Source: a virus | Strand: one strand, 5' to 3' | IMG/VR virus record: IMGVR_UViG_3300013132_000040 | Coordinates: 1-64,000 of that record | Length of the DNA: 64,000 nucleotides | Shown here: piece after piece, positions 3-25,829 of the stretch | Layout of the letters: every line of letters begins with the position of its first letter | How positions within the stretch are numbered: position 1 is the stretch's first letter | Made by a program: the position numbers and the translations under genes | The notes under the pieces: model-generated | Database searches by the model: none | What the model was told of the DNA's origin: nothing | Seen by the model: only the letters and a program-made list of their open reading frames with translations

Positions 3-3000
3 GTAACAAATTACTCTCAGAGTTTCACTACTTATAGAACAGATTGGGACTTTTTATTTGAATACCTAAAATCAGCCAGATTAACCATAGAGGATATGAC
101 AATCGATAAACTCAACGGTTATATGGATGAGAGGATTAAATTCCTTAAATCAAATAAAACAATTAATACAAGTGACGCCGAGCAAGGCGCACGCAATCAA
201 ATTCGTCAAATATGGTTTCAAGCAATGTTTGGCGGGTTTGCTCAGACACCATTTTATAGGAAATATCTAGAAAATTATCAATATAAAAATGGGGCCTTTG
301 TATTAAAAGAGTGGGAAGTTCCTATGGAGGAACTTAATTTTGATAAAAAATCAATTTATATTCAAGGGATTTCAGTTTCTCTTTCTAACAACTTTGCTAA
401 GCATCAAGTCCAAATGCATGATGAACCGACTTATCAACATATAGGTGGCGGCGATAGTAGGCTTGATATAAGTATGGTTGTTTTTGGTGAAGATAATTTA
501 ATACGAATAAGAAGGATGTTTGAAAGAATCGGCGGTTTAGCTCGTCTCGAACATGCTCATGGCGTTTTGGGTTTTCTTGGTATAAAAAATGAGCTTACAG
601 CTTTAGCTGGTATTAAGTATGTAATACCACTAACGTATGAGGTGGACACTATACCCGGATTCCCTCGTGTTTACAATGTTCGTTTATCTTTTATAGATTT
701 TGATGTTTTTCAGCAAAAACGTGAAAGATTATCTTCTGAACAGCAAAATGAGCTTGTTGATCTTTTTGGCAAAAGGAATCCTTTTTTGAGAGTTAAACAG
801 GCGTGGGGAAGATTTAATTGTTACCCCGATTTCCCGCTGTCAATTAAAGATAAAGATACTGGTAAAGTAATAGGTACAATTGATCCGGATTTTTACTTTA
901 GGGCATTTACAACCTATGATGACGATTTAACTTACTGGGGTAGTTTGCCAGACGAAGAAGATGCAACACGATTTAAACTTTCCCCCGATGGTCAGGTAAC
1001 TCAACCTGATGAAAATGATCCTAACTCTAAGGAAAACTTGGATGAAAGTATTTCGCCATTTGGGTTTGATATTAAGAGTGAATATTATTCAAATAAAGAC
1101 AAAAAAGTCGGTAAGTATCCAATGAGGATTACCACCCATATTGGTGTCACTAATGATGCGCAAGATGAGACTGCGGTTGTTGAAATAAGCAACGGCGCTT
1201 CAATTAGAGTTGGTACCCAAAAAGCTGGGGATCCCGAGCCTTTGTTTAGTACGGACGACGGATTAAGGGGCAAGTGGATAGAGGATAATGCTGTAAGTTC
1301 GACTATGACTTCCGAGATTGCTGGCTTAACACCTGGGGCTAAATACCAAAATTGTTATGCCTACAATTCACTTGATCCAAGTGGTCAATTTGAGCTTATT
1401 ATGAACGATGCTAAGTATAGGGATATAAACGGCAGAATGATTAAAGCATTTCCTACCTATATGCTTTGGTTGATAGATGAGGGTGGTCGTTTTGGTGGAG
1501 TAAAGCTTTTTGATAATTTTTACGGTCTTCAATCTGTTGTCGATTTCTCTATCAATAGGTCCGAAGATGTACTCGGCGACACGTTGGTTCTCAGGTTGTC
1601 AAATCTTTATTCAAAACTTTCTACACCTTTTAAGGGATTTGTTAAAAGGCAGGATGGTACTGAAAATCTTGTTTTAGATGACGAAAACGGTAACGCAATA
1701 GAAAGCATTGCTGATATTCCGGAACATTTGATACAAATATATGAAAACATACAGAGTGGAACGCGAGATGATTACGTTGTTGAACTTGAAAGCATAAGGT
1801 TAAAACCTGGTGTTCGCGTACATTTAAGGATGGGTTACGGCGCTAATCCAAATTCATTGGATACCGTATTTAATGGCGTAATAACCCAAGTTCAGGCTGG
1901 GGATATAGTCGAAATTATAGCGCAATCAGATGCTATTGAGTTAAGTCAATATATTAATACGACAAATAAAAAAGGTCATTCAGGAAAAATTGATGGTTCA
2001 ATTGGTACTGGTCTTTATTTGTCTGAGCCAAGAGACCTTATGGTGCGTTTGTTGTCTATGGGTTCGTCTAGGTTTAAGGAGGCGTTTGCGCACGCTACTA
2101 GGGGTCAAGTTTTTTCTGAAAGTAGATTTGGTATTAGACATTTTGGGTCTATACTTTACGAACCACTCAATGATCTTGAGAGACAAAGGCACGCGTTGAG
2201 AGCTCGCGCAGTACAAAATCGCTTGCAGGCTGTTGCTAGTACTTCTTCGATAACAGAAGTAATAACGCCTGGTCTTGGAAACGTTTCAGCTTCTGACGTG
2301 AAAGATATTGCAGATAATAAATCAGATAACTACGCCGATTTAATTGGCGGTGGATTTAGTGGATTTATCGGCAGTGCCGGCATACGTATGCCGTTGATAG
2401 GTTTGATGCAGAGCATGTGGACCAATTTCTTTACTAAAAGAGATTTTGAAATCTTTAAACGTAACATTTATCCGGGCAATGGGACTGGTGTAGCGCAATA
2501 CCTGGGGGGAGATGTGCTCGATGCTGGCCCGATTATGCTTGAGGCAGCTGGTGTTAAAGGGCCTGATTTGTATAATTATATTAGCAATAATCCCGAAAAT
2601 AACATTTTTGCAAATTCACAAAACGGAAACAGTAAAAGCAAAAAAGACACAATAGGACTCTGGTCTGATACGCTTTTGAATCAGTCGTTAGGTGCTAAAA
2701 GAAGGAATTCTTCATCAAGCATTAATAGCTTGGGTCCACTTGGTCCTATGGGCGCTCAAAGTCCCACCAATAATACCGCACCAAATCCTGATGCAGCCGT
2801 TAATAAAACACCTAGGCAAGATGATGGGGATATTGATTTTCCATCTGGTGTAGAATTTTTGATGAACCTTAATCCAGCTAACCCAATGGGTGGTACTCGA
2901 CTTGAGGCTGGTCTTAATCTGGTGAATGGGGTATTCCGCAATAAGGGTCGTATGGCTGACAATCCCATTTTAAGGGCTATGGGATTAGTGCAGGGTGGGG

Positions 3001-6000
3001 AATCTGACGATGATCTTTCCGGTTTTGACGAAGTATCCTTTAGGGCACAAACGTATATGAAAACAGTTTGGGATCTTTTTAGACTTTGTGCCGCTTTACT
3101 CCCCAACTACATTGTTGCTGTTAGGCCGTTTGAGGATAGGTCAACTGTTTTTTATGGTAAGCCGCATTGGCTGTACACTTCAGGTGTCATACCTCTTTCA
3201 ACTGGCGTTCCCAAAAATGATGATAAGCTGAAATATGAAGGGCCAGACGAGGCTTTCCAGAAACTTTTGCGCGAAGCGACAAATAGGGCTAACCCGCTCG
3301 CTGATTATGAAAATCAAATGACATTTTTAAATGATATCAATACGGCAAACCCATTTACCACTAAATCAGGTTTGGACGTCAATGCTGCTCAGTATTCTTC
3401 CCCCAATGCCGTTTCAAAACTTCCCGATACTCAGCTTGGTGCTAAGATCCCCCATAAGAGTGGCAAAGTTAAGTTGGGTAAGCATATTAGCGAAAGTTAC
3501 ATTAAAGTTCCAAGATCTAACGAAGAATTAATACCGATAGTAAAAAAGAAGTTAAGTCAAGAGTATGCTAGTATCGTGGTTGTTGAGCCAACTGGCGAAT
3601 TTAATCCTGATCCAAACTTTGATTATAATAAAAATGAAAAGAACAAACAAAGAAGAGCAGAAATAGAGAAAATTCTTGCTATATTCGACAATAATACTGG
3701 TAACTTAACGACTGGGCGCGTGAGCGATCAGGAAAGATTAAATACTATAAATCGTTATTTGCAGGACCCAAACTATATTAGTGACGAAGAAAAGTACAAA
3801 GACGGTCCAATTAGTAAATATCACGACGAAATCCCCGATCTTCCTGAACAGTATAAATTTAGGAATTGGAAAGATTTTAGAGATTTCAATTTCGCCTTAA
3901 GCTCAGCCGATGAAGAACAATGGTATATTAGAATGCGATGGCCCTACCTGGACTGGCAAACCGTACTTGGTAAAACTTGGGATAATGCAGAAGGCATAGA
4001 GTCTGATTACGATCAGTATGAATCGTATCGAGGCAAAAAAATAGCAGTTGCTAATCCGGCCACGAATATGGTTGTTATTTGTGCGATAGTACAAGACGGG
4101 CCTAATGAAATTGAATATAAGGCCGAAGTTTCACCTGATACATATTTTGTTTTAGGTTTAGATAAATCACCAGAAGCTGAGTGTTATTTTGGTTTTGTAG
4201 ATCAACAAACTAGACTTGGCCCAATGAGTGGTAAGTATGCTTCCGGAATAGATAATTTTGTTTCTGAGACCCCAATACCTACCCCAATTGTTACTCCCCC
4301 TTGGGAGAATGAGCCAGGAAGAGGACCAAGGGATTATCAGGCTTATGTTCAGCCGTTCTACGGTACCGAAAGATTAGTGGAGCAACTATTTCCTCAGGAT
4401 GCCCCTTTTGAATCTGGAAGCGATAGATTCGCTTCGTATCAAAAGCTGTATGAAAGTAATTATTTTATAAATTCATTTCTTTATGGCTGGATGCAGGGTC
4501 ATGCAGACGGCAGGAATGAGTACAAGACTAAAGGACCGCGTCAATCCGGATATTACGGTGCGGGCTCTATGGATAGTGGTCCTAGCGATACAGGTGGCGA
4601 TACAAAACCCGAAGATGCTAAATACGTAGAAAACTATATTTCTGCAATAACTAACCAAATAAAAACAAATCCTACGATAAATGATACACAGTATAAAGTT
4701 GGAATGTATGACATAGTTGGGGAGATAGCTAGAAGGATATACGATGGTAGATACAATGAGAGGCGCGCAAGAGTTGTTTTAAACCAAGAATTTAGAAGTG
4801 ACTATTCGGGATACAAGGATGCAGATGCAATTACTTCGGCGGCAATTCAAACAAAAGAAAGTTTTGACAGAATTAGAAAAACATCTTTCTCTAAAGAATT
4901 TGAACATTTCTCTGAAGATGACGCTGAACAGATTTGGGACGAATTTAGGGCTAGGTGGCATATTAGAAATGATGGTCAATTTAAGGAAGTAAAACAAGCC
5001 GCAGAAGAATTTGTCCTAAAGTACTTAGGCGCTCTTCCCGCAATGACAGATGAACAGCTTGCCGCAACTGTCAAGGATCCATTTTGGATTGATGGTGGTT
5101 CTTCTGATATGAATCTTGACGTCGAAAAAAATCCTATAGACAAAATTCTTTACAGTACTAATATGACTAAGATTGTAAACAATTTCAAAATGCTACTTTG
5201 GAGGCTCCCATTTGCAAGGGCCTGGTTGGTAATTACCAGTACCCGAAACACTGGTAGCACAGCCTATACGGCGGCCGGTGCTGCTGTTACTGCATTTAAT
5301 ACCGCTACGTCGGGTAACGTTTTGACATCAGCAGCACAGGGGTTCGGAGCCGAACAGGTGTTGAAAGCGTTAGGGCCAGCTGATGAATTTGATTTTGGGC
5401 AAAGTGAAGTTACAAGGCTTTGGCGCTGGTACCTTGGTGTCAATAAGGATGGAGAGACTGCTGACAAGGCCAACTTTAGCCCAGATGGCGTTAAATACCT
5501 GACGGAAGCCGCGGCATTAAAGGATGATTTTGTAGCCTTAACTTCCCCATTGGAAGTGCAAAATGGTACTTACTCCGACATTTTTAAGCATAGCAAGATA
5601 GTGAAAGATTTTGTAAGTGCATTAGGTCGCTACAACAGGGTTGGCGCCAAGAGTAAAACCGATATCGAAAGAACAGTAGACAAAATTAAAGATTCATGGG
5701 ATCAAACAATTGGTAGATTCTTTGGCTTAGTCGGAGATGCCCTTACTGGTGTTGTGGGTATGTTTAGGATGTCTTTAATGGAAATGGGCTACGGCATGGG
5801 CATGCTTGGCGCCATGCAGCAGCAGGCTAATATATTAAATCGCGCCTTTAATGATTCCATTTACTACGCAATTGGTGAACCCGGTTCTGCTATATGGTTG
5901 GCTGACAATCCTTTTACAAGGGAGTATGGTGAGCCTGTAATAGAAATTCGGGAGCCATTCCAAAGGTTTCACTATTTAAATTCTTTCCAAGACATCATTG

Positions 6001-7847
6001 ACAATGGTATACAAGAAAAATTAGACAACGTACCTACAGTGATAACTGCCAGTTCCGATGGGAAGTATCCGGTTACTGTCTATTTTGACAAAGGTGCTTC
6101 CCCAGAAAAGCAGTTTGAAATAGGCGTAGAAACTGGACTCTTTTGGGACAACGCAAGGGGTAGTGGGTTTTTTGGATTCCTACACCCATTACTTCATCCA
6201 ATCGAAACTCTAAGGGGAATGTCTAAGAGCGCAACTGGTTCTTCTGATGAGATTCTTTCCAGGAGGGTTGGCCTTTCGTACTTAAAGGAAGGCCTAAAAG
6301 ACATTTATGGTGGGGAACTTGTTATTATTGGAAGGGCAGATATAAGACCACATGATTTGGTTTACCTAGCAGATACTTACGAAAGAATGTACGGAATTTT
6401 TGAAGTGGAGGCGGTTACTCATCACTTGACCAGTGATACAGGTTTTGTCACTTCAATTACTCCCAATGCGGTTGTAACAATCAACGATCCAGCTAGATGG
6501 ACTTTTCAGTCGTGGGTTTGGGGGATGTTTGGTGTTCAAGATACCCGTAATCATGTTCGACACCTCATGTCAGTGACTGCAGATAAAAGTTCTGAAGCAT
6601 ATAATTCTACACTTGCATTTATGCGCGAAAATAACGAAATCGACATGACTGCTTTGGCTGAATCTATACAAGATTCAATTCGTGGTAGTGTTCAATTTAC
6701 GGGCGGTAATAGTGCACTATTAAGGGATATATCCACTCACGCGGCCACAGGCTACATGCGGCCTGCAAGTGATAAGTTCAGGCCACAAATGAATCAATCT
6801 GAACAAACAATGGCTCAAGTTTCAAGAATATTTAATAACCCGGCAACTTCAGCACTTAGTTCTATACCAATTATAGGGTCAGGCCTAGTTGATATTGCGT
6901 GGAGTGGATGGGAGTGGGTTCGTGATAACCTGCTGGATCAACACGGTTGCTATATTCAATATTTAACTAAAAATGGACAACCAATGGACGCAGGATTGAG
7001 TTTTAACCAGGGGGTGGCTGTTGGGCACCATCATACCGTCAACATACTTCCAGGTATACTTAATGTCGAAACAAAAATTACGCAAAATGGAAATAGAAGA
7101 ATTACCGCAAATGATTTAATGGCAGAATTGGGTTGGCAAGAAATTGAAATATCAAGTGTGCAAAGGCAGGTGAGCTGGTGGAATAATTACTGGAACGCCA
7201 AAGTTCTAGAGCTGGCTGGCCGTGGTCCAGATCCCGTTGCCATTTCGCCCCCGAATGCATATCTTGCAATGGTTTTGACCGTTGGTGTAGAAGATGATCA
7301 AAAAGCAGAAGGTGTTATTGATGGCGATACTATAAAAGTTCAAAAGCTCGACGCAAACGGTAAAGCTTCGGGTGAAATAATTACTGTTCGTTTAGCCGGG
7401 GTTAATGCCGCGGAATTAGAGTTTAAGATAGACCTGCAAAGAAATGATCTTTCGGATAAAGGCTATTTAGCGCGTCAGTATCTTGAAAAGCGATTGGTAT
7501 TTGATCCAATTTCAAATGGGTTTCAGCCTATTGTTGCGATTAGGGAGTCCGTGGGTTCCGGCGATAGTCCAAGAAGTTCTACCGACCAATACGGAAGAAC
7601 ACTTGGCGTCGTTTTCCATAATGTTAGTGGCACAGTTTCCAATTCTGAAGATCGAGCAAAAAAGCTTTTGGAGCATGCTACTGCATGGCCGTTGATATCT
7701 TGGGATACCTTTACTGCGGAAGGTTTACCCTATACTGCCAATTGGGAGATGATCGTTACGGGGTTTGCTTATACGGATATGGGTGGAGTTCGCAAAAACG
7801 ATCCGGATAGAGGATACAGTTCCGGTAGGTATACTGGAGGTAATTAA
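3..7847 (+). CDS. Giant baseplate hub-like virion protein (5' truncated) with an internal RlpA-like double-psi beta-barrel and a C-terminal thermonuclease (SNase) domain
   Basis: The frame is open from position 3, so it starts upstream of the window. Hub-type segments: PGVRVHLRMGYG..VFNGVITQV..IIAQSD (~1800-1940) and GELVIIG..IRPHDLVYL..GIFEVEAVTH (~6310-6430). DPBB-like: IRMRW..GKKIAVANP..VVICAIVQDGP..EVSP..LGL (~3920-4160). SNase: VIDGDTIKV..VRLAGVNAAE..DQYGRTLG (~7310-7620). It directly precedes the spike/gp25/J genes. Confidence 0.7.
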   Translation, partial: VTNYSQSFTTYRTDWDFLFEYLKSARLTIEDMTIDKLNGYMDERIKFLKSNKTINTSDAEQGARNQIRQIWFQAMFGGFAQTPFYRKYLENYQYKNGAFVLKEWEVPMEELNFDKKSIYIQGISVSLSNNFAKHQVQMHDEPTYQHIGGGDSRLDISMVVFGEDNLIRIRRMFERIGGLARLEHAHGVLGFLGIKNELTALAGIKYVIPLTYEVDTIPGFPRVYNVRLSFIDFDVFQQKRERLSSEQQNELVDLFGKRNPFLRVKQAWGRFNCYPDFPLSIKDKDTGKVIGTIDPDFYFRAFTTYDDDLTYWGSLPDEEDATRFKLSPDGQVTQPDENDPNSKENLDESISPFGFDIKSEYYSNKDKKVGKYPMRITTHIGVTNDAQDETAVVEISNGASIRVGTQKAGDPEPLFSTDDGLRGKWIEDNAVSSTMTSEIAGLTPGAKYQNCYAYNSLDPSGQFELIMNDAKYRDINGRMIKAFPTYMLWLIDEGGRFGGVKLFDNFYGLQSVVDFSINRSEDVLGDTLVLRLSNLYSKLSTPFKGFVKRQDGTENLVLDDENGNAIESIADIPEHLIQIYENIQSGTRDDYVVELESIRLKPGVRVHLRMGYGANPNSLDTVFNGVITQVQAGDIVEIIAQSDAIELSQYINTTNKKGHSGKIDGSIGTGLYLSEPRDLMVRLLSMGSSRFKEAFAHATRGQVFSESRFGIRHFGSILYEPLNDLERQRHALRARAVQNRLQAVASTSSITEVITPGLGNVSASDVKDIADNKSDNYADLIGGGFSGFIGSAGIRMPLIGLMQSMWTNFFTKRDFEIFKRNIYPGNGTGVAQYLGGDVLDAGPIMLEAAGVKGPDLYNYISNNPENNIFANSQNGNSKSKKDTIGLWSDTLLNQSLGAKRRNSSSSINSLGPLGPMGAQSPTNNTAPNPDAAVNKTPRQDDGDIDFPSGVEFLMNLNPANPMGGTRLEAGLNLVNGVFRNKGRMADNPILRAMGLVQGGESDDDLSGFDEVSFRAQTYMKTVWDLFRLCAALLPNYIVAVRPFEDRSTVFYGKPHWLYTSGVIPLSTGVPKNDDKLKYEGPDEAFQKLLREATNRANPLADYENQMTFLNDINTANPFTTKSGLDVNAAQYSSPNAVSKLPDTQLGAKIPHKSGKVKLGKHISESYIKVPRSNEELIPIVKKKLSQEYASIVVVEPTGEFNPDPNFDYNKNEKNKQRRAEIEKILAIFDNNTGNLTTGRVSDQERLNTINRYLQDPNYISDEEKYKDGPISKYHDEIPDLPEQYKFRNWKDFRDFNFALSSADEEQWYIRMRWPYLDWQTVLGKTWDNAEGIESDYDQYESYRGKKIAVANPATNMVVICAIVQDGPNEIEYKAEVSPDTYFVLGLDKSPEAECYFGFVDQQTRLGPMSGKYASGIDNFVSETPIPTPIVTPPWENEPGRGPRDYQAYVQPFYGTERLVEQLFPQDAPFESGSDRFASYQKLYESNYFINSFLYGWMQGHADGRNEYKTKGPRQSGYYGAGSMDSGPSDTGGDTKPEDAKYVENYISAITNQIKTNPTINDTQYKVGMYDIVGEIARRIYDGRYNERRARVVLNQEFRSDYSGYKDADAITSAAIQTKESFDRIRKTSFSKEFEHFSEDDAEQIWDEFRARWHIRNDGQFKEVKQAAEEFVLKYLGALPAMTDEQLAATVKDPFWIDGGSSDMNLDVEKNPIDKILYSTNMTKIVNNFKMLLWRLPFARAWLVITSTRNTGSTAYTAAGAAVTAFNTATSGNVLTSAAQGFGAEQVLKALGPADEFDFGQSEVTRLWRWYLGVNKDGETADKANFSPDGVKYLTEAAALKDDFVALTSPLEVQNGTYSDIFKHSKIVKDFVSALGRYNRVGAKSKTDIERTVDKIKDSWDQTIGRFFGLVGDALTGVVGMFRMSLMEMGYGMGMLGAMQQQANILNRAFNDSIYYAIGEPGSAIWLADNPFTREYGEPVIEIREPFQRFHYLNSFQDIIDNGIQEKLDNVPTVITASSDGKYPVTVYFDKGASPEKQFEIGVETGLFWDNARGSGFFGFLHPLLHPIETLRGMSKSATGSSDEILSRRVGLSYLKEGLKDIYGGELVIIGRADIRPHDLVYLADTYERMYGIFEVEAVTHHLTSDTGFVTSITPNAVVTINDPARWTFQSWVWGMFGVQDTRNHVRHLMSVTADKSSEAYNSTLAFMRENNEIDMTALAESIQDSIRGSVQFTGGNSALLRDISTHAATGYMRPASDKFRPQMNQSEQTMAQVSRIFNNPATSALSSIPIIGSGLVDIAWSGWEWVRDNLLDQHGCYIQYLTKNGQPMDAGLSFNQGVAVGHHHTVNILPGILNVETKITQNGNRRITANDLMAELGWQEIEISSVQRQVSWWNNYWNAKVLELAGRGPDPVAISPPNAYLAMVLTVGVEDDQKAEGVIDGDTIKVQKLDANGKASGEIITVRLAGVNAAELEFKIDLQRNDLSDKGYLARQYLEKRLVFDPISNGFQPIVAIRESVGSGDSPRSSTDQYGRTLGVVFHNVSGTVSNSEDRAKKLLEHATAWPLISWDTFTAEGLPYTANWEMIVTGFAYTDMGGVRKNDPDRGYSSGRYTGGN

Positions 7848-8809
7848 TGTCTCATTTTGAGTTAAAAATTTCTGATATGCAAAGTGATAGTTCTATATTT
7901 AAGTCTTTGATATCGTCAATGCCTAATTACTCGCCGACTGGTCAAAAAATTGCGCTGAAAACAAGTGACTCACAGTTGCCAGCAAATGAAAGAAAAAAAT
8001 CTTTAACCACTTTTAATGTGTCAGATATATTACAAGGCACTGCAATGTTTAAGCCTTCTGGTTTGGTTTATAATTCTTTTAATGAAGTTTTATCTAAAAG
8101 CCTTGGCCAGGCAAGAAACGCCGCGGTAAATGGAAAACCTATAGGTTTTAGTAAAGCCCAAGTTGGTTTGATGGGTTACGACACTTCGTCTGTTCAGAGT
8201 TTTGATATTGCACTTGGTGCCTCGCAACTTGCCTCTTCGGCCTCTTCAGCGGGTACTGGTGGTGCATCCGCTGGTGGCGCTTTGCCCACTCAAGAGGGTA
8301 ATCCTCCCGCGGGTATACCTAGGGGACCATTCAAGCCCAGTATAAAGCGTTACAATAATCGCGAATGGATTCAAAATACTGGCGTTCAAGAAATACTTTT
8401 GACTGGACAGCAAATAATCGAATTGTTGTTAGCGGCAGGTTGCGATTTAAATGGCGCAGTGTTTATGTGGGCACTATGCAAAAGAGAAAGTAGTTTTCAT
8501 TGCAATCGTGCAGGGGTGAATGACAATGGAAGCACGGATGCTGGTTTGTGGCAAATTAACAATGGAATGAAAAAGGGTACTAATGGAGAACTTTACCAGG
8601 AATTTGATGGGTGGAGAGGCAATAGTATAGAGCAAATGTGCGATCCATGGGTTAATGTGTCTTTTGCTATGAGAATGTCTGGTAATGGCACTAGGTTCGT
8701 GCCATGGCAAACTACCGGTAACTACTCTACGCCAGACGATAGTCATTTACGTGGCGTTAATATAGAAGAGGCAAGAAACTTTTTCCTTGAAAATGGTTAT
8801 AGAGTATAA
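7847..8809 (+). CDS. Virion-associated lysozyme-like/lytic transglycosylase with a shared N-terminal domain (paralog A)
   Basis: C-terminal RESS..A.GVNDNGSTDAGLWQIN..DPWVN..A..M..PW lysozyme-fold motif; G/S/A linker; N-terminus aligns with the next two ORFs. Confidence 0.8.
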   Translation: MSHFELKISDMQSDSSIFKSLISSMPNYSPTGQKIALKTSDSQLPANERKKSLTTFNVSDILQGTAMFKPSGLVYNSFNEVLSKSLGQARNAAVNGKPIGFSKAQVGLMGYDTSSVQSFDIALGASQLASSASSAGTGGASAGGALPTQEGNPPAGIPRGPFKPSIKRYNNREWIQNTGVQEILLTGQQIIELLLAAGCDLNGAVFMWALCKRESSFHCNRAGVNDNGSTDAGLWQINNGMKKGTNGELYQEFDGWRGNSIEQMCDPWVNVSFAMRMSGNGTRFVPWQTTGNYSTPDDSHLRGVNIEEARNFFLENGYRV

Positions 8810-9732
8810 TGGCTTATTTTGATTTTACTATAAATAATTTCAAAAATAATGAAACTGTAGCTAAAGCCTTTATCGAGTCTGCAAAAAATTACGATCCAAC
8901 TGGTATTTTAAAGCCGTTACGGACATCGGCATCTTTAGAGCCCGGTAAAAAAAGTTTGACAACATGGAATGTTGCAGACATATTGCAGAATAATCTGACT
9001 TTTAAGCCGCAAGGTTTAGCTTATACCCAATTTAATGAGCAATCTTCTGTTGCGGCACAAAAAGCCTATAGCCTGCAAATAAATCAAAAAACTGTTGTTT
9101 CAAATGGAACTCGCTATCTTGCCTCTTATGATGTAAACGCTTCTTCTAAATACGTTGTAGATTTGGCTATTGGAGGCACATTTGCTTCACTTGGTACCCA
9201 AAATTCTTCACTAACATCCTCTGGTCGACCAGCACCTCCTTCAAGCGGTTTTATTTTAACCGGGGATTATAGGTTTCCCACGCATAAGACTCATTACGCG
9301 AATCCAGACGGTACACCAAAGGAGGATAGTGGTACAAAGGCGATGGATATTGGCCACTTTGATGGTGCACCAGTTTTTTCTCCTTGGGATGGCAGGGTTG
9401 CTTATATAGGTTATCCGGAGGGTGGGTTGGTTAAATCTGGTGCGACTAAAGATGTTTCTGGCGGGAACGCTATAGTTATAGTCGGCGATAATGGCTGGTC
9501 TATATACATGTGTCATTTTAATAATCCACCACTTGTTGATGTTGGGAGTCGCGTTTCTAAGGGTCAGAATATTGCACATGTAGGCGCGACAGGTCGTGCT
9601 AGTGGCCCCCATGTGCATGTGGCTGTTGCTAACTCCACTAATTTTGACGCCGTTTGGAAAGATCCTATTGATTATTTGTGGGATTTTATGAAAAGCCTCG
9701 AAACGCAAGCAAATGAAAAAAATGTTAATTAA
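8809..9732 (+). CDS. M23-family peptidase with a shared N-terminal domain (paralog B)
   Basis: AMDIG..GAPVFSPWDGRV..GGNAIVI..YMCHF..VGSRVSKGQNIAHVGATGRASGPHVH. Confidence 0.85.
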   Translation: MAYFDFTINNFKNNETVAKAFIESAKNYDPTGILKPLRTSASLEPGKKSLTTWNVADILQNNLTFKPQGLAYTQFNEQSSVAAQKAYSLQINQKTVVSNGTRYLASYDVNASSKYVVDLAIGGTFASLGTQNSSLTSSGRPAPPSSGFILTGDYRFPTHKTHYANPDGTPKEDSGTKAMDIGHFDGAPVFSPWDGRVAYIGYPEGGLVKSGATKDVSGGNAIVIVGDNGWSIYMCHFNNPPLVDVGSRVSKGQNIAHVGATGRASGPHVHVAVANSTNFDAVWKDPIDYLWDFMKSLETQANEKNVN

Positions 9733-9742
9733 GGGTTTATAA

Positions 9743-10642
9743 ATGGCTCATTTTAATATGTCTATTAAAGATTTCTTAAATAGCGGATCAATTGCATCTA
9801 AGGTAGTTGAGAATCAAAAAAATTATACGCCAACAGGTAAGCAGCAAGCGCTAGTTACTTCCGAGTCTAAAGACACAACACCCAAGAAAGGCCTAACAAC
9901 GGCTAGTGTTTCAGACATCCTTCAAAATCAACTGCTTTTTAAAGACCAGGCTTTTGTAAGTTCGCAATTTAATGAAGTTTTATCAAAAGAAATGTCTACA
10001 CTTTTAAGTTTGTCGATTGATGGCCAGAAGGCGAATCTGTCTAGGGGTACTGCCAGCTTGGTCGCCTATGATGTATCGCTTAAAAGTAGGCCAGGTCAAA
10101 TTCTTTTAGAAAATATGACAGGCTTTTCAAGCGGTTCCCCATCTGTTGCGTCGAGACCGACACCGAGTGGCTTTGTCTTTCCTTTGCAATCGACTAAAAC
10201 AACGATTAGGCGCGGATTAGATGGGGCAAAGTGGTCTTCCGAAAACCAGGCAAACACCCATCATAGCTACAACGCTGCCGACATATTCGCTGAACCGGGG
10301 ACTATAGTCGTCGCTGCTATGGGTGGTAAAGTAATATCAGTTAATAATTCTGGCGGAACATTCGGTTCAAGTGTTAGGATAGAGGGTCAGGATGGTTATT
10401 GGTATTACTATACACATATGGGCTCAGGTACTATTTCAGTGACATTAAATCAACAAGTAGCGTCAGGCGCCGTGCTGGGTAGGGTGGGTGTTTCGTCTGA
10501 GGCGCAAAATACTACACCGCATTTGCATTTTGATATAAGTCCACAAGAAAATGGTTTTTCTAGAGGGTATGGTTTTGCAAACGGCCCACTTATTAATCCA
10601 CAACCATGGCTCATTGAGGCTTTTCAACTTTTACCGGAGTGA
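9743..10642 (+). CDS. M23-family peptidase with a shared N-terminal domain (paralog C)
   Basis: HHSYNAADIFAEPGTIVVAAMGGKV..YYYTHM..LGRVG..TPHLHF..INPQPWL. Confidence 0.85.
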   Translation: MAHFNMSIKDFLNSGSIASKVVENQKNYTPTGKQQALVTSESKDTTPKKGLTTASVSDILQNQLLFKDQAFVSSQFNEVLSKEMSTLLSLSIDGQKANLSRGTASLVAYDVSLKSRPGQILLENMTGFSSGSPSVASRPTPSGFVFPLQSTKTTIRRGLDGAKWSSENQANTHHSYNAADIFAEPGTIVVAAMGGKVISVNNSGGTFGSSVRIEGQDGYWYYYTHMGSGTISVTLNQQVASGAVLGRVGVSSEAQNTTPHLHFDISPQENGFSRGYGFANGPLINPQPWLIEAFQLLPE

Positions 10643-11022
10643 CTATGCAACTATCAAACAATCCAAAGTTTAATTCGTATATAGAATCAAAAATACAGAC
10701 CTCTGATGAAACCCGTAATATTGATAGGTTTGGTGTGATACTTTCTTATAACCCAATAACTAATACGGCTACTGTTTTAATGTCATCTCCGAATACAGAA
10801 ACAGCGGGTGACATACTGGAGAATGTGCCATGCCCTGTTTTTATGGGTATTCAGATGGCTGCCCCAGAACCTGGTCGCCCATGTTGGGTTTGCTTTAAGG
10901 GCAACAGGGGAGAAAAATATCCTATGATAAGCCATTATTTCAATCACAACTACGAAAAATATGATTACCAAAGGCATACGGTAGCTTCAAGTGGCATTCC
11001 GTACTATATGTTGAGTATGTAA
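10639..11022 (+). CDS. Baseplate spike OB-fold-like protein (gp5/gpV N-terminal-like)
   Basis: GVILSYNPITNTATV..LENVP..PEPGRPCWVCF..YPMI pattern and position between hub and gp25. Confidence 0.55.
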   Translation: MTMQLSNNPKFNSYIESKIQTSDETRNIDRFGVILSYNPITNTATVLMSSPNTETAGDILENVPCPVFMGIQMAAPEPGRPCWVCFKGNRGEKYPMISHYFNHNYEKYDYQRHTVASSGIPYYMLSM

Positions 11023-11023
11023 A

Positions 11024-11374
11024 ATGGAATTCCAAAGACCAACAGAACTTCTTCTTCAAAAAAATCGTTTTACGAGTACAGAAGTCGGTTTAACTCATCA
11101 AACTACCCCTTCTTATATCAGACTTTGTGATAATGGGGACATAGAAATTATGGCATCTGAAGGTGTCGGTATAGTGTTGCATGCGGCGAATAGGAGCGTT
11201 ACTATCATAGCTGATAGCATAAAGTTTATGACGAAGGACGATGGTTTAAAGTGGAATGATAAGCACTTTAATTCTAATTCTTCAGAATGGACTGAACCCG
11301 CCCTCCTTAAAAAGGAAGTGGGCGAAATGTTAGGCGTTTTTGATGGTGTCGACGATTATATTGGTGAACTCTAA
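11024..11374 (+). CDS. Small baseplate protein, spike beta-strand repeat-like
   Basis: SYIRLCDNGDIEI..GVGIVL..RSVTIIADSIKF, short beta strands like a gpV C-terminus; context. Confidence 0.45.
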   Translation: MEFQRPTELLLQKNRFTSTEVGLTHQTTPSYIRLCDNGDIEIMASEGVGIVLHAANRSVTIIADSIKFMTKDDGLKWNDKHFNSNSSEWTEPALLKKEVGEMLGVFDGVDDYIGEL

Positions 11375-11754
11375 TGGATTTATACTTTTCGGAATCTGGA
11401 GACCTAAAGCTGACACCGACAAAAGATATTGCTTTAACCGATTCCGATTGGCGAGATAACGCACAGAAAGCTTATATCATACTGCAAACTACACCTGGTG
11501 ATTTCACTCTGTACCCCAGGCTCGGTGCAGAACTTTCTAGACTTTATGGTTTACCACAATCTAAGGAAACTGGTGATCTTGGTATCAAAATTATAGAAGA
11601 GGCATTAACCAGGTCTAATACTTTTAATTCCTCAAGTTTAAGTATAAAAGCAATTCCAACTGGCCCTCAAACTATACGTTTTGATATATATGTGGTTAGT
11701 GGCGTTAAGAAAAATATGATGATTTCTATACAGCAAGATTTGGGGCTGATATAA
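11374..11754 (+). CDS. gp25/gpW-like baseplate wedge (sheath initiator)
   Basis: DL..SGDL..DIAL..LQTTPGDFTLYPRLGAELSRLYG; 126 aa, directly upstream of baseplate J. Confidence 0.75.
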   Translation: MDLYFSESGDLKLTPTKDIALTDSDWRDNAQKAYIILQTTPGDFTLYPRLGAELSRLYGLPQSKETGDLGIKIIEEALTRSNTFNSSSLSIKAIPTGPQTIRFDIYVVSGVKKNMMISIQQDLGLI

Positions 11755-11755
11755 A

Positions 11756-12898
11756 ATGACTGTTTACTTTAAAAAAACTCATGACCAAATAATGAGAGAG
11801 GCACTTGCTAAGATAGAGCGCAATACTCCCATAAACGCAACTAACCCTGGGTCCGTAGCTAGAGCAATGACAGAGGCGATAACAACTGAACTCGGCGCTT
11901 ATTACGATGTTTTAGATTTTAACATAACTCAATCATTAGTTTCAAGTGCAACTGGTTCAGCCCTCGATCGTTTGGCTTCCCTATATAACATTAGTAGGAA
12001 AACGGTAGGTAGAGTTGCTAGGGCTGAGCAGAGGGTCGGAAGTTTTTATTTTTACCTTGATTCAACCTACGAATCGCCAGTCGTGATCCCCGCCGGTACG
12101 CGCGTTTTCACGGATAACGTCGGCTATGTTGGTAGGCAGCTTGTTTTTACCACTAATAACGAAGTTATAATACCTCCAGGTTCTTTAAGGGGCTATGTTT
12201 CAATAACTCCTGAATTTGCGGATGGAGTCTTTAGCGCACCTGTCGATACGTTAACTGCGCATAATTTCCTGGCTCCGAGTAATGTTGTCGTACGCTGCAC
12301 AAACGCTAAGGAAATTACAGCTTCCGAAGGGTATGAAAGAGATTCGGATTTTAGGGTAAGGGTTTTAAAGGGTATAAGGGTTGCCTCTTCGGGTACAATG
12401 GAAGCGGTACGTTTTGCCGCGCTTAATGTAAGTGGCGTTCGTGACGTAAGAGTTAGGCAAGCACCTTATGGGTTGGGTTCTTTTGAGCTTTTAATAGTGC
12501 CTGAACAGGCAGATTTGATTTCTTCTATCATAGTAGAAGTAAAGACTGCTGTAGATAGGGTTAGGCCACTTGGTGTAACAATGTTTATGAGAACGCCAGT
12601 TTTGCGACCCTTGCAGCTTCAGGTGTCTGTCTTGAGCAATTCTACCTCATCTCCGGAGTATGGAAATCTGACGGATCGTGTATCAACTGCGGTTGAGCGC
12701 TATTTGAACACGCTAATGCCTGGTGATACTATAGTCTACAATAAGTTAATACAGGCAATGATGGATTCGTCTGGTATAATTAAAGATATTCAAGTTTTAC
12801 GTTATGCGCCTAATGGCGTAGATTCAATTAAAAGAAATTATACCCCTAAGGATTATGAGCAAATAATTCCGGGTAATATTCAAGTTTCGTTAGCCTAA
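11756..12898 (+). CDS. Baseplate J-like protein
   Basis: PGSVARAM..ATGSALDRLA..R..VIPAGTRV..G..RDSDFRVR..GTMEAVRFAALNVSGV..VRPLGV. Confidence 0.9.
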   Translation: MTVYFKKTHDQIMREALAKIERNTPINATNPGSVARAMTEAITTELGAYYDVLDFNITQSLVSSATGSALDRLASLYNISRKTVGRVARAEQRVGSFYFYLDSTYESPVVIPAGTRVFTDNVGYVGRQLVFTTNNEVIIPPGSLRGYVSITPEFADGVFSAPVDTLTAHNFLAPSNVVVRCTNAKEITASEGYERDSDFRVRVLKGIRVASSGTMEAVRFAALNVSGVRDVRVRQAPYGLGSFELLIVPEQADLISSIIVEVKTAVDRVRPLGVTMFMRTPVLRPLQLQVSVLSNSTSSPEYGNLTDRVSTAVERYLNTLMPGDTIVYNKLIQAMMDSSGIIKDIQVLRYAPNGVDSIKRNYTPKDYEQIIPGNIQVSLA

Positions 12899-12912: not shown

Positions 12913-14094
12913 GTGAGAGTTTGTGCAGGCCCGGATTGTGCGGAAGAGTTCGATCCTATAGTCCATAATCAGAAGTATTGTGGTCCGGTTTGTAAGAGAG
13001 CCGCAGAAAATGCGGCCAAAAGGAAAGCGTTTACAGAAGACGTTGCTCAAGCAGTGGTAAAAAGTGTAGCCCCTGCGTATATGGGAATAGAGAATGAAGA
13101 AGGGCGAATAGACTTTTTGCAAAAAGAAGTTATTAGACTTTCTCGTTTGGCTGATAAGCGCAAATCTGTAAAAGATGAGATTGTTGATGTCACCTATCAG
13201 GCAGCATTTGACGCTTTTGCTGATTTCGAACTGCCACCAGTTAAAAAGCCTGTTTTTGGCAAGTCGGGCGTTGGTGAAGAAGAAGTTGCCGTAGCTGTAT
13301 GCGCAGATTGGCAGCTGGGTAAAGTGACTCCAACCTATAATTCTGACATATGCAGAGATAGAATAGATATTTTTGGTGACAAAATTATCCGTATAACCGA
13401 AATGCAAAGGGCCGATCACCCCGTTAAAAAAATACATCTCTGGCTTTTAGGTGATATTGTAGAAGGTGAAGAAATATTTGCGGGCCAAAGCCACTTGCTA
13501 GATTCTAGTCTCTATAAACAAGTAGGGGTAAATGGCCCAGAAATAATATCTGAACTAATACTTAAACTACTGACAAGTTTTGAGAACGTACATGTAGTTG
13601 GTGTTATAGGTAACCATGGCGCAATTGGTGGGCGTAGCAGGAGGGACTATAATGGCGAAACCAACATGGATAGACTACTTTATAAAATTGTAGAGTATAT
13701 TTTCAAAGATGAACCAAGAGTCACTTTTGATATACCAGATGGTGATGGCGAAAGAAACTTTTATGCTGTCGATAACATAGGTCTTTATTCTACCTTGCTA
13801 ATACACGGAGACCAGTTTCCGCCTCCTTCCACTACGCATGCATATTATAAGAAAGTGATGGGCTGGAAAGATGGTGCAATACCAGAGACTTTTCAGGATG
13901 TATACATGGGGCATTATCATCAGAATGCAAAAATGACTTTAGGTCAAACTATTCTTAGGGTTTCTGGCTCTCCAGAGAGTTACAATACATATGCGCAGGA
14001 AGTTTTGGCGGCAATGGGAAGGCCATCTCAGCCACTATTATTCGTCCACCCAGTCAACGGTGTCACTGGAGAGTATACTGTTTGGCTAGATTAA
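12913..14094 (+). CDS. Calcineurin-like metallophosphoesterase with an N-terminal Cys finger
   Basis: Motifs DWQLG, GDIVEG, GNHG, HGD, GHYH; N-terminal CAGPDC..YCGPVC; GTG start after AAGG. Confidence 0.85.
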   Translation: MRVCAGPDCAEEFDPIVHNQKYCGPVCKRAAENAAKRKAFTEDVAQAVVKSVAPAYMGIENEEGRIDFLQKEVIRLSRLADKRKSVKDEIVDVTYQAAFDAFADFELPPVKKPVFGKSGVGEEEVAVAVCADWQLGKVTPTYNSDICRDRIDIFGDKIIRITEMQRADHPVKKIHLWLLGDIVEGEEIFAGQSHLLDSSLYKQVGVNGPEIISELILKLLTSFENVHVVGVIGNHGAIGGRSRRDYNGETNMDRLLYKIVEYIFKDEPRVTFDIPDGDGERNFYAVDNIGLYSTLLIHGDQFPPPSTTHAYYKKVMGWKDGAIPETFQDVYMGHYHQNAKMTLGQTILRVSGSPESYNTYAQEVLAAMGRPSQPLLFVHPVNGVTGEYTVWLD

Positions 14095-14106: not shown

Positions 14107-17100
14107 ATGAAGACTTATTATTTAAGGTTAAAGGATGTAGATTTTTCGTTTACCGGTGGACGCTGGGTTAGTGGCGTTATCGACTTGTACGATAACGAAA
14201 GCACAATGTCTATGGCTACGCCTTCTTACGTGAACTACAGTACCGTCACTAGTTCGTATGGAACCAACCTTTTGGGCGATGATACATGGACTGGTTTCAA
14301 TATAGTAGACGACTCTGCAAGCCCTAATATAGTAACTGAATCTGGATACATTAAAGATGGCCGGTTTGTTGATACAAGCGGGAAAATTAATGTTACTACT
14401 TGGGAAGTTGTTTATAACAATTTTTCCTTTAGTGAAGTAAGTGCTTCAATTTCTTTTTATTATACGGATCTTTCGACCTTAAACTTTCCCGAAGAGTGGC
14501 CAAAAGTCGGCCCGTTAAAAAATAATAAAGGCATATATATACCCAACTGCCCAAGGTATGCTCGTTTTATAGTTGATTTTGAGTCAGAAAAAGATTTAAC
14601 TGGTATTAGTTTTGATCTTTATGTTAAGGTAAGAATTGAAAAACCGGTAATATCCCCGCTGTATGGTAGGACAAGAGGGATTCTTAGGAAGTTTCCCGAA
14701 TGGATGGAGTTAAGGAAGGATAGCGAAGATTCTTCTACACCAAGCCTAGCCACTCCAACCACTGTTGCGGGTTCTTTTATTAATGCGATAGCGGGGGAAT
14801 GGCTTGAAGACCTCGTAGAGACTGTTGGTTATGTACAGCTTCAGTCATTTATAGAAACTGCCGATACTGGACAGGTTGCTTGGGTATACGTCGCTGATGG
14901 CGTACCAACGCTATTCGCAAGGGCTATCGGGGATGGCACGATATTGTCGCGTGCCGCTGATGTCGTTGAATTTACTAAAGCGGCAGATGATAGCGATATA
15001 TTTTACTGGGATGAAGATAAGAGAATTATCTACACCAGAAAACTTTATCAATATTTCCAAATTGACGATACCAAATACGAGCAAAACGCAAGTCAAGTTT
15101 GGAACTGGTTTGACGAACACGGCTTATCTCTTGACCTTGAGCGCCACACGTCGGAAAGCAATGATTCATATAAAAAGAGAATTATTGATGTCTACAGGAA
15201 TAAGCCGGGCGTTGGGATTGAGGCATTTAAACTAGCTTTGAGGCGTGAGCTCAATTTATGGCTCTATGAAGGTGCAACACCTGATTCAAATTACCTCGGT
15301 GCCACTCCTGAGGTCCTAGAAGTTAAAGACCTTTTTAATGACGAATCTTTTGTCTTTCCAAACGGAATGCCAAAAGATAAGTTTATTAAACTTGTTGATG
15401 ATCTAGCAGTTAAGTACCCAACAACTTGGGGTTACTTTAGGTGGGACCAAGCCTACTGGGATATAGATGGCGATGATTCCTTGGGATATGGGCTTTTGCC
15501 CTATCAATATGATCCGGGTCATTTATCTAACGAGAGTACTCAGTCTGGTGTTGGCGATGACCTGGACCTCTACTTGTACAAGCCCAAAGTTAATACTGGT
15601 GTAAAAGAGTTTGATTTGTCAGTGGTTGCCAAGGGTTACACATTGACCTATGTTAATGATTATGCTCCAATTAACTTTTTGATCGATGTTTATGGACGTG
15701 CAGAAAAAAGCGTATATTCTACAGATAAAACAGAATTTCCTATGAATTTTGTTGCAACCATGTCTGACGGGAAACAATATAGGGCAAATTTAGATGTAAA
15801 TATTGATAAAGCAATATCGAACGAAGATCCTGGTTTTCTTGGGGCTTCTGCAACGGTTCCATTGGTTGAAATCGATAAGCTTTTCCCCCAAATAAATTGG
15901 TACGATGATGAACTCCAGAGATATTCCAATTCTTATGCGTCTAGCATGCAAACGAAGTTGGCCGATATAACAGGCACTTACGTATTTCAAATGCCTAGGA
16001 ACTCTATTTTCAATTCAAGCAATCCCAAACTTCAGATCGGACAATCAATATCTCTTTATTCGGGTTCTTCCTATATATTTGGGACAATAAAAAATATATC
16101 ACAGTCTTCCAGTTTTTATCCCGACGAAATAGACCTTTTTGATTACCTTACGGTTGAGGATATAACGTACAGTGGAGATATAACTTCCTCAAACTGGACT
16201 ATACCCTGGTATATTTATCTCCTTAACACAGATGCCACTCCAACTTTTATGTTGTCCAATATGAAAGTTGGTTTTGGCAAGTATGAATTAATACCTAATA
16301 CAATAGTGCAAAGTCACAACTCGGTAAAAATGTTCTTTGAAAACCCAAATTCATATTACGTTGTATTTGGCCTTTCTGCTGGATCGTTAAATACTGCAAC
16401 TCCATCTGTGACTAAGGACATGGACATAGTCTTGCATCGTCTGAGTGCACAAATAATGGGTACTGTATATCATGTAGATTCTGATCCGGACGATTCAACT
16501 TATTCCGGCATAAGTAGTTCACAATCAATTAATTTAACAACTCTCACGGTTGGCGCAAGTTTGACTTTCGCTATTTCTAGTCATGTTAAGTTTGCGGTTG
16601 GCAACAAAATTAAGGTTACTCACTCATCCAACTCTAGCAATTATTTTACTGCTACTATAACCCAGAAACTATCTGGTCCAAGTAGGTTAACCGTAACCGT
16701 GTTAAGCAAATCTGGTTCGGGTACCAGTATTGATTCTTGGTCAATTACTCCAATTTGGGATGAGGTAATAAGCGAGGCTAAAAGTATTGCCGCATTGTCG
16801 TCTTATGATGAGTATATTATTGTTCATTTGTCTTCTGTTTCGGGAGATTGGATGGAAACTGATGGTTGGGAAATTTGGAGTAATGGGTATTTTGGTTTTG
16901 ACAATTATCCTAGTGAAAATCTGACAGCATACTTAAGTGACGATTTATATAAAGCTACACCATCTCATTATCTAGAGGCACAAAGTGCTACTCCGGGTAC
17001 GTATTTAAATAGTGATCTTAAATCTTTCCCTTCTGTAGTGGTTGGTTTGGAAGATTATTCAATTATAGAAAATTACCCCTGGGAATCTGAAGCTCAGTCC

Positions 17101-25500: not shown

Positions 25501-25829
25501 TACAGCTTGGTGTAATTTTTGTTTCCGCAACTGCGCGTGTTGACGACTTGGTTGTGCTCGACACCAGAAAAAGGGGCGGTGGTGCAGTTGATTCATTAAA
25601 AACCGCTGAGATATTTAACGAAAATACTTCAGCTTTGTCCTATTGGGATGTTGGTTTTGGTGCGGGGAATACATTCCAAACTGGAGGCTTTGTTGTAATT
25701 CGTCTCCCCAAGATGCTAAAAGTTGTTTTTCCTGATACTAAAGAGGTAGAGCAAATTATCAGGAGGAACATTTCCGCTGGTGTTGAGTTTGTTTTGGAAG
25801 ATCTAGAAGGGCGTCCGTGGGATGAATAG
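19542..25829 (+). CDS. Large baseplate-associated protein with internal peptidoglycan-binding repeats
   Basis: PG_binding_1-like GSSGEVVRFIQ..SGVFDERTAEAV, LQRALQVYPDGIFGPAT, IQKLLGLPQDGFYGPETERAVMNWQ, VDGFWGPIT; C-terminal LDTRKRGGG..YWD..VIRLP. Confidence 0.65.
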   Translation: MEKFENVTSTGNEKAIRRGNSVPEGDINIAWVKSPTFSPQNSMVVLDTSNLVLENSGDQSSVSKFAYANHLGILQDEFGNELFFDEYPAVTDEFSVEENYDISEDNEFSEGYIFAYKHVSRYFHVDQEDLVQGSEPLTLQKEKIIVEDEDGNEYVDLNNKKRYKVKLLKSDEYLETQDRTIGVYRIWVFIDTDINESLYLRYNKAELSSDGKYIKNQKTDYREILNPQPYFSYVPEETDVTDLGSLNKKIYSTKSTSQKEQIIGIPRSSSEGYKVYVPRKAIQDPRLFQTFRWRIKADFQERYTIDPENQPKVIRAGVLISNNSIYPRRLSDLENQGPGIQYNYLQPPTNFPYVFYNLEKSDYNPSGAKIVNPLSEDRGYTIVEDIDPAVQSPTDGNALYNSPSFTWKGNITAPLKRVSGEGAKEYASYWIVNFDTVTDEELRKFDILFLDPTQFPADLSKYTGKIYRFTREFGGLLYIPLGGYGRKVGLGPTTTLPIHPYTGVFASSTFASGVSNADKSFGLGDTIAPRITSDELFNGLNQYGGWDFDSDSYASVSPFKFHPSVLYTKERSYVQFINSAEDAATNDGLEYWKTLFEVNERAASSVPGQITTPVVKKYPVTLIKRFASGGSIIYDTQNIIAECAKLEDSVNIAPRRLQIPSYFQQINSGRFEGSYKFAWNSILATIKSRPLDSSDQSSYVSSWSFETEWKPSWVINGGVLKTAEKTKYSFNYEPEDLNSPNTFAWRRKLAYGLNSASYPIFKTIKEIVDEQIVKEMGQQFLLNISGSSRKYSIEVTNANVKVPVTLVDDMYPYAWTNEYSPTLLIPEGFGPHIVREDPIMAQYSSGQYIDKSYPPNKFAVKVKASYRETAQSTKRETTTILARYRGKEILPNGFIYSHVFLPRTWTEHGSNQLLFNRFNKAWGAPRPNSILSRNELFLSQTTAYPFAGIAGSYSQGSSGEVVRFIQYSLNKLHEIIGLHLNRGVNGPIPDGMIAQDGYAMASSWALKYRLPSGQLDQSGVFDERTAEAVKSLKVLAGSRYADGIADSDFFSILGSQIQFWGLTTDINENTRNPGSFDTSEYNYLRYTAYANRYMDLKNISDSSTLYNYVEMSDSRRPDIDRISDVFLIQYPKVYNFDHISVTPYLLGQGSNINIDFVDVRKTRVDTTRFTGDMLNKAWQYFEIEERSGGGSGWVPDSPRILWGQNPEYWGSNNVKQTTWDYRYWNGITKTPVSYSALPFVSVENEKAYIRMLQRALQVYPDGIFGPATAAAARRWKVTRASQWGIPVDSNWGLISAVTTIQKLLGLPQDGFYGPETERAVMNWQANWNGAMPVDGFWGPITQKFTDELFIFLGGTPTVERIQRHLPQPYFVWPENLLRSYDPAQALIPRANITAPVGTRTDVSLPQNTRSIGNTIIVGVSSTQRAGIEYGNQLQLGISDITGYGRDYVGFRTLSGEAAVIDYEGVVTKAFTFYGDIGPIQLNHNYGETGAPGRLTDVEWGIDPISEVSTTIFPGFDPSSVGLFRIESSNPNVEAFITRNGKVYLRTSEVINNNTSNYTEGRWLPGPPDQPLNGKVFAISSRNPDSVSEIDTQKNPVYAMDENGRIFPGVETGFISKADGIKLLCTLDGKPIGIPVMPSGIGAEEYQRHYVDIELESYATSPFVNIGFYDKNQKEFIINKDGSSKLSYIEYVKRGPQNIYIGVVSSAEVVEKKNLPQVVDGLNELPFKYVMPVYGLVSKTKTKIGIEPINSNLGATDIWGVPIRVGSFNRNINLPSYSSSPIVGWLSKYQGRTVHAFYSVPEANLNSWSSIFGRPYIDVKGEHPNLLQEDVLQVRQFPILSVTEPTQKPSLSDPERPVLKVWTRQSIDDEWTELKRSDVIDYNLSNGLVYLRTPLPQKDSNLIKVDYTTVSRVYTAKSANGQKVNLNPYLKIREDMIGVPVYVYLVPEYVKNEDMEIIDESTNSSTVKITTDNSEINPYDPFYNPLAVQLGVIFVSATARVDDLVVLDTRKRGGGAVDSLKTAEIFNENTSALSYWDVGFGAGNTFQTGGFVVIRLPKMLKVVFPDTKEVEQIIRRNISAGVEFVLEDLEGRPWDE

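Follow-up and report, generated by a model that had tools for sequence, protein, structure and literature searches.

The locus and its three paralogous genes

The DNA considered here, below called the window, makes up the first 64 kb of a viral contig of 76 kb in IMG/VR (IMGVR_UViG_3300013132_000040, positions 1 to 64,000). CheckV puts the completeness of this contig at 36%, and the virus is therefore a jumbo phage with a genome of roughly 200 kb. Directly downstream of the gene for a giant baseplate hub protein are three consecutive genes, here designated A, B, and C, and each encodes a shared N-terminal module (the N-module), a linker, and a C-terminal catalytic part (the head). The genes and their parts are as follows:

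7847-8809, plus strand: paralogue A, 320 amino acids, N-module, linker, and SLT_3
7847-8191, plus strand: N-module of A, amino acids 1-115
Up to about amino acid 150 of A: linker, disordered
8429-8713, plus strand: SLT_3 lytic transglycosylase of A, amino acids 195-289
8809-9732, plus strand: paralogue B, 307 amino acids, N-module, linker, and Peptidase_M23
8809-9144, plus strand: N-module of B, amino acids 1-112
9334-9633, plus strand: Peptidase_M23 of B, amino acids 176-275
9743-10642, plus strand: paralogue C, 299 amino acids, N-module, linker, and Peptidase_M23
9743-10084, plus strand: N-module of C, amino acids 1-114
10271-10549, plus strand: Peptidase_M23 of C, amino acids 177-269

The start codon of A overlaps the stop codon of the hub gene (TAATG) and is found downstream of a GGAGG Shine-Dalgarno site, and the start codon of B overlaps the stop codon of A in the same manner; Shine-Dalgarno sites precede the overlaps. 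The TAATG overlaps thus predict translational coupling both from the hub to A and from A to B.

The N-module and the catalytic heads

A reading made earlier from the sequence only had described A, B, and C as tandem genes sharing an N-terminal domain of about 115 amino acids, which is followed by a linker of glycine, serine, and proline and then by a lysozyme-like/SLT, an M23, and a divergent M23 domain, respectively. This description is borne out. An alignment of the first approximately 115 residues of A, B, and C has 32 invariant columns, and the invariant motifs include NYxPTG, LxTS, KK[SG]LTT, V[SA]DILQ, FK, FNE, and YD. When the N-terminal parts are compared pairwise using BLASTP they display 39-44% identity (E 1e-24 to 1e-27), while the C-terminal part of A is unrelated to those of B and C, and those of B and C are only 26% identical to each other (E 1e-3). 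The linkers have a high content of G, S, P, and A and comprise 20-40 disordered residues.

The Pfam scores of the heads are above the cut-offs. A matches SLT_3 (PF18896) with 35 bits against a cut-off of 27, and also SLT (PF01464) with 18.2 bits, which is under the cut-off of 21.3. The residues ES at positions 214-215 lie inside the stretch matched by SLT_3 and would be the catalytic Glu-Ser pair. B and C both match Peptidase_M23 (PF01551, cut-off 28.7), with 60.4 and 68.8 bits, respectively, and a six-frame search agrees for both. The HxH motif of the M23 family is kept as HVH in B and as HLH in C, and both align to the HLH of gp147 from Bacillus phage 0305phi8-36. When it comes to the first zinc motif (HxxxD), neither protein is canonical when read by eye; the corresponding residues are TKAMD in B and HHSYNAAD in C.

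The N-module itself was not recognized in the sequence-only reading, and the searches done since then agree. No Pfam match was obtained for residues 1-115 of A, B, or C, even though matches up to an E-value of 1 were reported; this includes the known T6SS (type VI secretion system) and eCIS (extracellular contractile injection system) cargo marker and adaptor families. Nor was there any match in PHROGs, NCBIfam, or the sequences in PDB, and none was found among deposited phages when INPHARED was searched using tblastn, meaning that no cultured phage carries the module. The earlier reading had stated that a known wall-binding or secretion module would speak against its proposal. No such family was matched; the wall-binding modules looked for in Pfam, NCBIfam, and PHROGs include LysM, SH3, PG_binding_1, SPOR, and CW_7 among others. 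All neighbors of the N-module in the ESM Atlas score below 0.8, which is noise level. One protein annotated as an endopeptidase in Plectonema phage JingP1, found at the position of an internal virion protein, was considered as a relative and rejected. Its tblastn match spans residues 19-286 of C, but hhalign gives a probability of only 0.2 for similarity to the N-module, and the match is thus due to the M23 domain.

Structure prediction using AlphaFold2 gave a poor model of the N-module alone, with a pLDDT (predicted local distance difference test) of 64 and a pTM (predicted template modeling score) of 0.29. As part of full-length A the module reached a pLDDT of 70-88 and displayed helices mixed with short hairpins, while residues 133-148 of the linker had a pLDDT of about 44. 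In fold searches for the module, the best Foldseek match in PDB had an E-value of 2, and the best match in an exhaustive VIA wide fold search had a Z-score of 2.8, both of which are noise. A search of BFVD with full-length A gave matches only through the SLT part (E 2.7e-4), to viral SLT/entry lysozymes and to the SLT parts of virion proteins. The models are too weak for calling the fold new. A poor fold in isolation, together with a disordered linker, is compatible with a part that becomes ordered only inside an assembly, although this proves nothing. Judged from its primary structure, the N-module is a real, previously undescribed domain family.

The hub and spike genes and their relationship to 0305phi8-36

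The sequence-only reading placed A, B, and C between a hub and a spike gene. This placement was confirmed, since the giant protein encoded upstream is homologous to gp147 of phage 0305phi8-36 and the gene following C to gp148 of the same phage:

3-7847, plus strand: giant baseplate hub protein, 5'-truncated by the contig end, 2583-2614 amino acids here
10639-11022, plus strand: P2 gpV-like spike protein of the OB-fold type, 125-127 amino acids, identified by its BLASTP match to gp148

The upstream giant, which is 2979-3145 amino acids long in relatives, aligns to gp147 in four colinear BLASTP blocks (E 2e-22 to 5e-7) and matches phrog_20474 at 1.3e-101. Conserved blocks outside the gp147 core are found at hub residues 1870-2370. 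The closest deposited hubs found by tblastn are those of Bacillus phages 0305phi8-36, WH1, Edson, and KLEB27-3 and of Moorella phage MTATph1. Using HHsearch, gp147 has been assigned to the hub family of T4 gp27 and P2 gpD (Hardies et al., 2007; PMC2147016), and the upstream giant, through its homology to gp147, is assigned to the same family. The same study described gp147 as a 'hyperplastic' hub with an N-terminal transglycosylase and C-terminal NlpC/P60 and M23 domains (PMC2147016). We confirmed the two C-terminal domains using Pfam, whereas no wall hydrolase was recognized by Pfam in the hubs of the window lineage.

The downstream protein, of 127 amino acids, matches gp148, annotated as a 'P2 gpV-like protein', over 98 residues (BLASTP E 8e-6) and has no match in Pfam. 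The likely start of its gene is the ATG at position 10645, which has GGAG in front of it.

The C-terminal part of the hub (window positions 7310-7780) contains motifs resembling those of staphylococcal nuclease, namely DGDT, VRLAGVNAAE, and DQYGR, without any match in Pfam. The hub homologue of the BtI1 element also bears a staphylococcal nuclease domain (Hardies et al., PMC2147016), and domains of this type thus seem to recur on the hubs of this lineage.

Distribution of the N-module and exchange of the heads

The earlier reading proposed a hidden Markov model (HMM) search that would look for variable C-termini and for a conserved position between hub and spike. When 1.84 billion representatives were searched exhaustively with an HMM, the N-module was found in 72 clusters. 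Almost without exception it begins no more than a few residues from the start of the protein, with M1 and F4 conserved, and the proteins that carry it are mostly 260-340 amino acids long. In none of the 72 clusters is it found inside a hub or a tape-measure protein. Over 71 members the heads were assigned as M23 (16), VanY (13), NlpC/P60 (11), SLT_3 (9), CHAP (3), M15_4 (3), Amidase_5 (3), Amidase_2 (2), GDSL (2), and glucosaminidase (1). By these domain assignments the N-module is fused to at least nine families of wall hydrolases, and the C-termini do vary as proposed.

Gene contexts come from four related phages, namely that of the window and those designated L005, L006, and L014; most of the other approximately 60 clusters are known from Logan assemblies alone, with contigs of, for instance, 154,038, 204,583, and 64,049 bp. 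All four contexts that could be read display the same order: the hub gene, two or three paralogues, the gpV-like gene, two small genes, and Baseplate_J. The proposed position between hub and spike is thus kept, and no readable context lies outside a baseplate locus. The heads are SLT/M23/M23 in the window and in L005, and SLT/Amidase_2/NlpC-P60 in L006, while L014 has two copies only, one with an SLT head and one with a head of an unassigned family. In other lineages, clusters with an identical size of their longest contig hint at two or three copies per genome; members with NlpC-P60, VanY, and GDSL heads would on this basis be co-resident on a single contig of 34 kb. Scans of IMG/VR with three distant subfamily alignments gave no further contexts, and scans of JGI metagenomes returned only the same two contigs again and a fragment of 1.1 kb.

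A maximum likelihood tree of the N-modules splits the copies from the window, L005, and L006 by gene position into the clades A, B, and C (ultrafast bootstrap 99-100), and within one such clade the heads differ. The two proteins P0006 (M23) and P0005 (NlpC/P60) are 75-100% identical through residue 100 and unrelated beyond about residue 115, while in its M23 part P0006 has 75-95% identity to C from the window. P0006 thus combines a P0005-like module with a C-like M23 head, which places the breakpoint at the linker and implies that module and head have separate histories. In more distant lineages, the N-modules presumed to be co-resident cluster together in the tree and not by position, a pattern that would fit either repeated duplication or a co-evolution of the modules with one shared partner.

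A separate endolysin, and hub-proximal lysins of other phages

In the relative G002, which is 90% complete, a classical endolysin is encoded at a distance of about 50 kb from the genes of the A/B/C type. It is composed of Amidase_2 and two PG_binding_1-like repeats (L021 2326-3981, corresponding to about 103.3-105.0 kb in G002), lacks the N-module, and its gene adjoins one encoding a holin-like membrane protein of 145 amino acids with one N-terminal hydrophobic helix. The presence in G002 of a separate endolysin with a holin-like neighbor supports the view that A, B, and C are not the enzymes of lysis. Collagen-like proteins (GPT repeats) and glycine-rich proteins are encoded directly upstream of this lysis cassette.

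Free-standing proteins are also found close to the hub in related phages. In the cultured relative Bacillus phage vB_BceM_WH1 two of them, gp093 and gp092 (L022 13439-16027), follow right after the hub, and one is annotated as an amidase. Their first 37 residues are 73% identical and their last 120 residues 34% identical, while the middles differ. The shared N-terminal segment is not homologous to the N-module, and the pair may be an independent case of a common N-terminal anchor. In Moorella phage MTATph1, one of the small genes that separate the hub gene from the baseplate wedge gene encodes a protein of 247 amino acids annotated as 'endolysin' (L023 15312-16055), and this is another hub-proximal free-standing lysin in the phage group.

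Other genes of the baseplate region

Downstream of the spike gene follow three further genes of the conserved order:

11024-11374, plus strand: baseplate protein of 116 amino acids, conserved in synteny
11374-11754, plus strand: gp25/GPW-like sheath initiator of 126 amino acids, a weak assignment from PF10934, phrog_25235, and position
11756-12898, plus strand: Baseplate_J wedge protein (P2 gpJ/T4 gp6-like), PF04865 at 1.6e-19 and phrog_6 at 2.8e-44

The 126-residue protein matches the Sheath_initiator family PF10934 below the cut-off (E 0.028) and phrog_25235 at 3e-7, and its gene immediately precedes Baseplate_J. Directly after Baseplate_J a protein of 393 amino acids is conserved (window positions 12913-14094). 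It matches phrog_284, labeled 'exonuclease', with an E-value of 7e-41, and weakly Mre11; a metallophosphoesterase-like protein is encoded within the baseplate module. The next protein, of 1811 amino acids (14107-19542), has a Big_1/invasin D3-like Ig domain at about residues 1462-1547, which scores below the Pfam cut-offs. It is followed by a giant baseplate or fiber protein of 2095 amino acids (19542-25829) containing PG_binding_1-like repeats at 23286-23666, which give PHROG endolysin matches and are 43-45% identical to the C-terminal repeats of the G002 endolysin. Since these repeats are inside a baseplate or fiber protein, the phage particle may bind peptidoglycan directly.

In G002 three consecutive paralogues of 224, 388, and 290 amino acids are encoded directly after the sheath gene (L013 4181-6969). 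They match phrog_9206, 'major head protein', but are more likely tube-family proteins for which this PHROG label is misleading.

A proposed function for A, B, and C

The architecture, the locus, the head swapping, the homology of the neighbors, and the separate endolysin are observed; virion association and anchoring are inferred. The explanation that we favor, and consider somewhat probable, takes A, B, and C for hub-proximal, virion-associated entry lysins carrying a new type of N-terminal anchoring module. Their assignment to the virion-associated peptidoglycan hydrolases is based on genomic position and homology. According to this explanation they would be tail-tip hydrolases of an uncultured jumbo myophage related to 0305phi8-36, predicted to breach the cell wall at infection and not at lysis, and would correspond, as split-off proteins, to the hydrolase domains carried on the hub of 0305phi8-36. 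The enzymes would be made as separate polypeptides from the same coupled operon as the hub and the spike, and the N-module would serve as the assembly anchor fixing each enzyme to the hub-spike complex. The flexible linker would be a tether that lets the head reach the wall, and at the same time a recombination joint; given its position between anchor and head, recombination there would swap heads and so alter the set of enzymes carried. A hub-anchoring role is plausible because the cultured relative has the same enzyme classes fused to its hub.

Several points weigh against this explanation. An N-module-like segment within the hubs themselves was looked for using hhalign and hmmsearch and rejected, as none was found in gp147 or in four hubs of the lineage. 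The hubs display no internal repeats, and no indel in them tracks the number of paralogues, which is two or three among the phages. The evidence from the locus is that of only four related phages. Finally, B may be catalytically impaired, since by eye it has TKAMD in place of HxxxD as its first zinc-ligand motif.

The N-module might alternatively be a packaging or ejection signal, with the enzymes residing in the tail tube or in a cavity of the hub alongside the tape measure and being expelled on contraction, in the way that an N-terminal signal serves eCIS/PVC cargo, and not being fixed to the outer face of the hub. The location of the module at the very start of the protein, its conserved M1 and F4, its poor order when modeled alone using AlphaFold2, and the position of the genes directly after tail-interior and hub genes would all agree with this, and the nearest named neighbors in the language-model search are secretion substrates, although with noise-level scores of 0.75-0.76. 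We nevertheless find it unlikely, as a module of about 115 residues for which helices and hairpins are predicted exceeds the disordered N-terminal signals of eCIS cargo in both length and conservation, a long and flexible linker would be expected of a tether sooner than of a cargo, and 0305phi8-36 has the same enzyme classes as covalent parts of its hub. To an equally low degree we believe in an obligate heterotrimer, in which the three N-modules would form a pseudo-threefold unit on the axis of the hub with one copy per enzyme. Three phages do have three copies that form position-specific orthologous clades, and the translational coupling suggests that equal amounts are made. The syntenic phage L014 has only two copies, however, and equal longest contigs suggest pairs in several other lineages, where the presumed co-resident N-modules cluster together and not by position. 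A fixed A+B+C heterotrimer is somewhat weakened by the existence of two-copy phages, and since the copy number varies between two and three, a fixed unit of this composition is not general.

A role of the N-module as a new domain by which soluble lysins, either accessory endolysins or enzymes that are released, bind the cell wall appears slightly less probable still. Modular lysins usually pair a catalytic and a wall-binding domain, and the free-standing lysins encoded downstream of the BtI1 hub bear ordinary wall-binding domains (PMC2147016). The N-module, on the other hand, resembles no known binding domain, its predicted fold is not compact, and the lineage uses PG_binding_1-like repeats for wall binding in the endolysin as well as in the baseplate giant; the genes are moreover locked in the hub-spike operon in all four phages, and a separate endolysin with a holin-like gene exists. 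The N-module could also be thought of as a pro-domain keeping the enzymes inactive in the producing cell until assembly or cleavage. Unregulated wall hydrolases would endanger the producer, and an N-terminal position fits a pro-peptide, yet one module would then need to act as an inhibitor of nine or more unrelated catalytic folds across a disordered linker of 20-40 residues, which makes this explanation very improbable.

Comparison with known systems

Virion-associated wall hydrolases are a kind of protein already known, and the anchoring of separate enzymes proposed here is a plausible mechanism. The closest parallel is gp147 of 0305phi8-36. The window lineage and 0305phi8-36 have a homologous hub core followed by a gpV-like spike, and transglycosylase, NlpC/P60, and M23 are tail-tip enzyme classes in both. 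They differ in that the enzymes are domains of the hub in 0305phi8-36, which lacks the N-module, while the window lineage encodes two or three separate proteins that each carry it.

The tail lysozyme gp5 of phage T4 sits on the gp27 hub and serves entry, not lysis. In gp5 a non-catalytic N-terminal part and linkers hold a wall hydrolase at the hub and spike, as is proposed for A, B, and C. The anchor in T4 is the OB-fold of the spike itself and there is a single enzyme, whereas the window has several interchangeable enzymes and, as its spike, a small gpV-like protein encoded separately. No similarity in sequence or fold was found between gp5 and A, B, or C.

Like A, B, and C, WH1 gp093/gp092 and the BtI1 lysins are free-standing proteins whose genes come right after that of a homologous hub, and at least one of them is a wall hydrolase. 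The 37-residue segment shared by the WH1 pair is not homologous to the N-module, and the layout is therefore analogous only. The BtI1 lysins, unlike A, B, and C, have the usual order of endolysins, with the catalytic domain N-terminal and the binding domain C-terminal (PMC2147016).

The sequence-only reading likened the three proteins to a modular cargo system resembling the effector loading of T6SS and eCIS, in which the shared domain would be an adaptor for a trimeric cocktail of enzymes. Cargo of such systems carries conserved N-terminal markers (MIX-type in T6SS, the packaging signals of PVC and Afp in eCIS) joined to polymorphic C-terminal payloads. The logic of an N-terminal marker with varied payloads of a contractile injection machine is indeed the same, and the interchangeability of the heads stands, given the many C-terminal hydrolase families. 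What does not stand is homology to a known adaptor, which is why the likeness is an analogy only, and the trio as a general arrangement, L014 having two copies. A further difference is that the payloads here are only wall hydrolases and the machine is a phage tail.

Implications for the phage lineage

To our knowledge, wall hydrolases of the tail tip are almost always domains fused into hub, spike, or tape-measure proteins. What is new here is an undescribed module common to two or three separate enzymes per phage, with recombination at the linker. It is conceivable, although we lean slightly against it, that the N-module is a general plug-and-play adaptor for loading of the tail tip, so that any enzyme fused behind it would be mounted on the hub-spike complex. 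If so, single recombinations at the linker would be the means by which the lineage re-arms its entry apparatus, and the adaptor would be the phage counterpart of the effector markers of T6SS/eCIS and a ready handle by which payloads could be engineered onto tails. If the module is an anchor, it would constitute a modular way to arm a contractile tail, would explain how entry enzymes are exchanged to match the walls of the hosts, and would provide a small tag with which enzymes of choice could be mounted on phage particles. At a minimum, the N-module gives annotators a new family that marks the hub-proximal lysins of uncultured jumbo phages.

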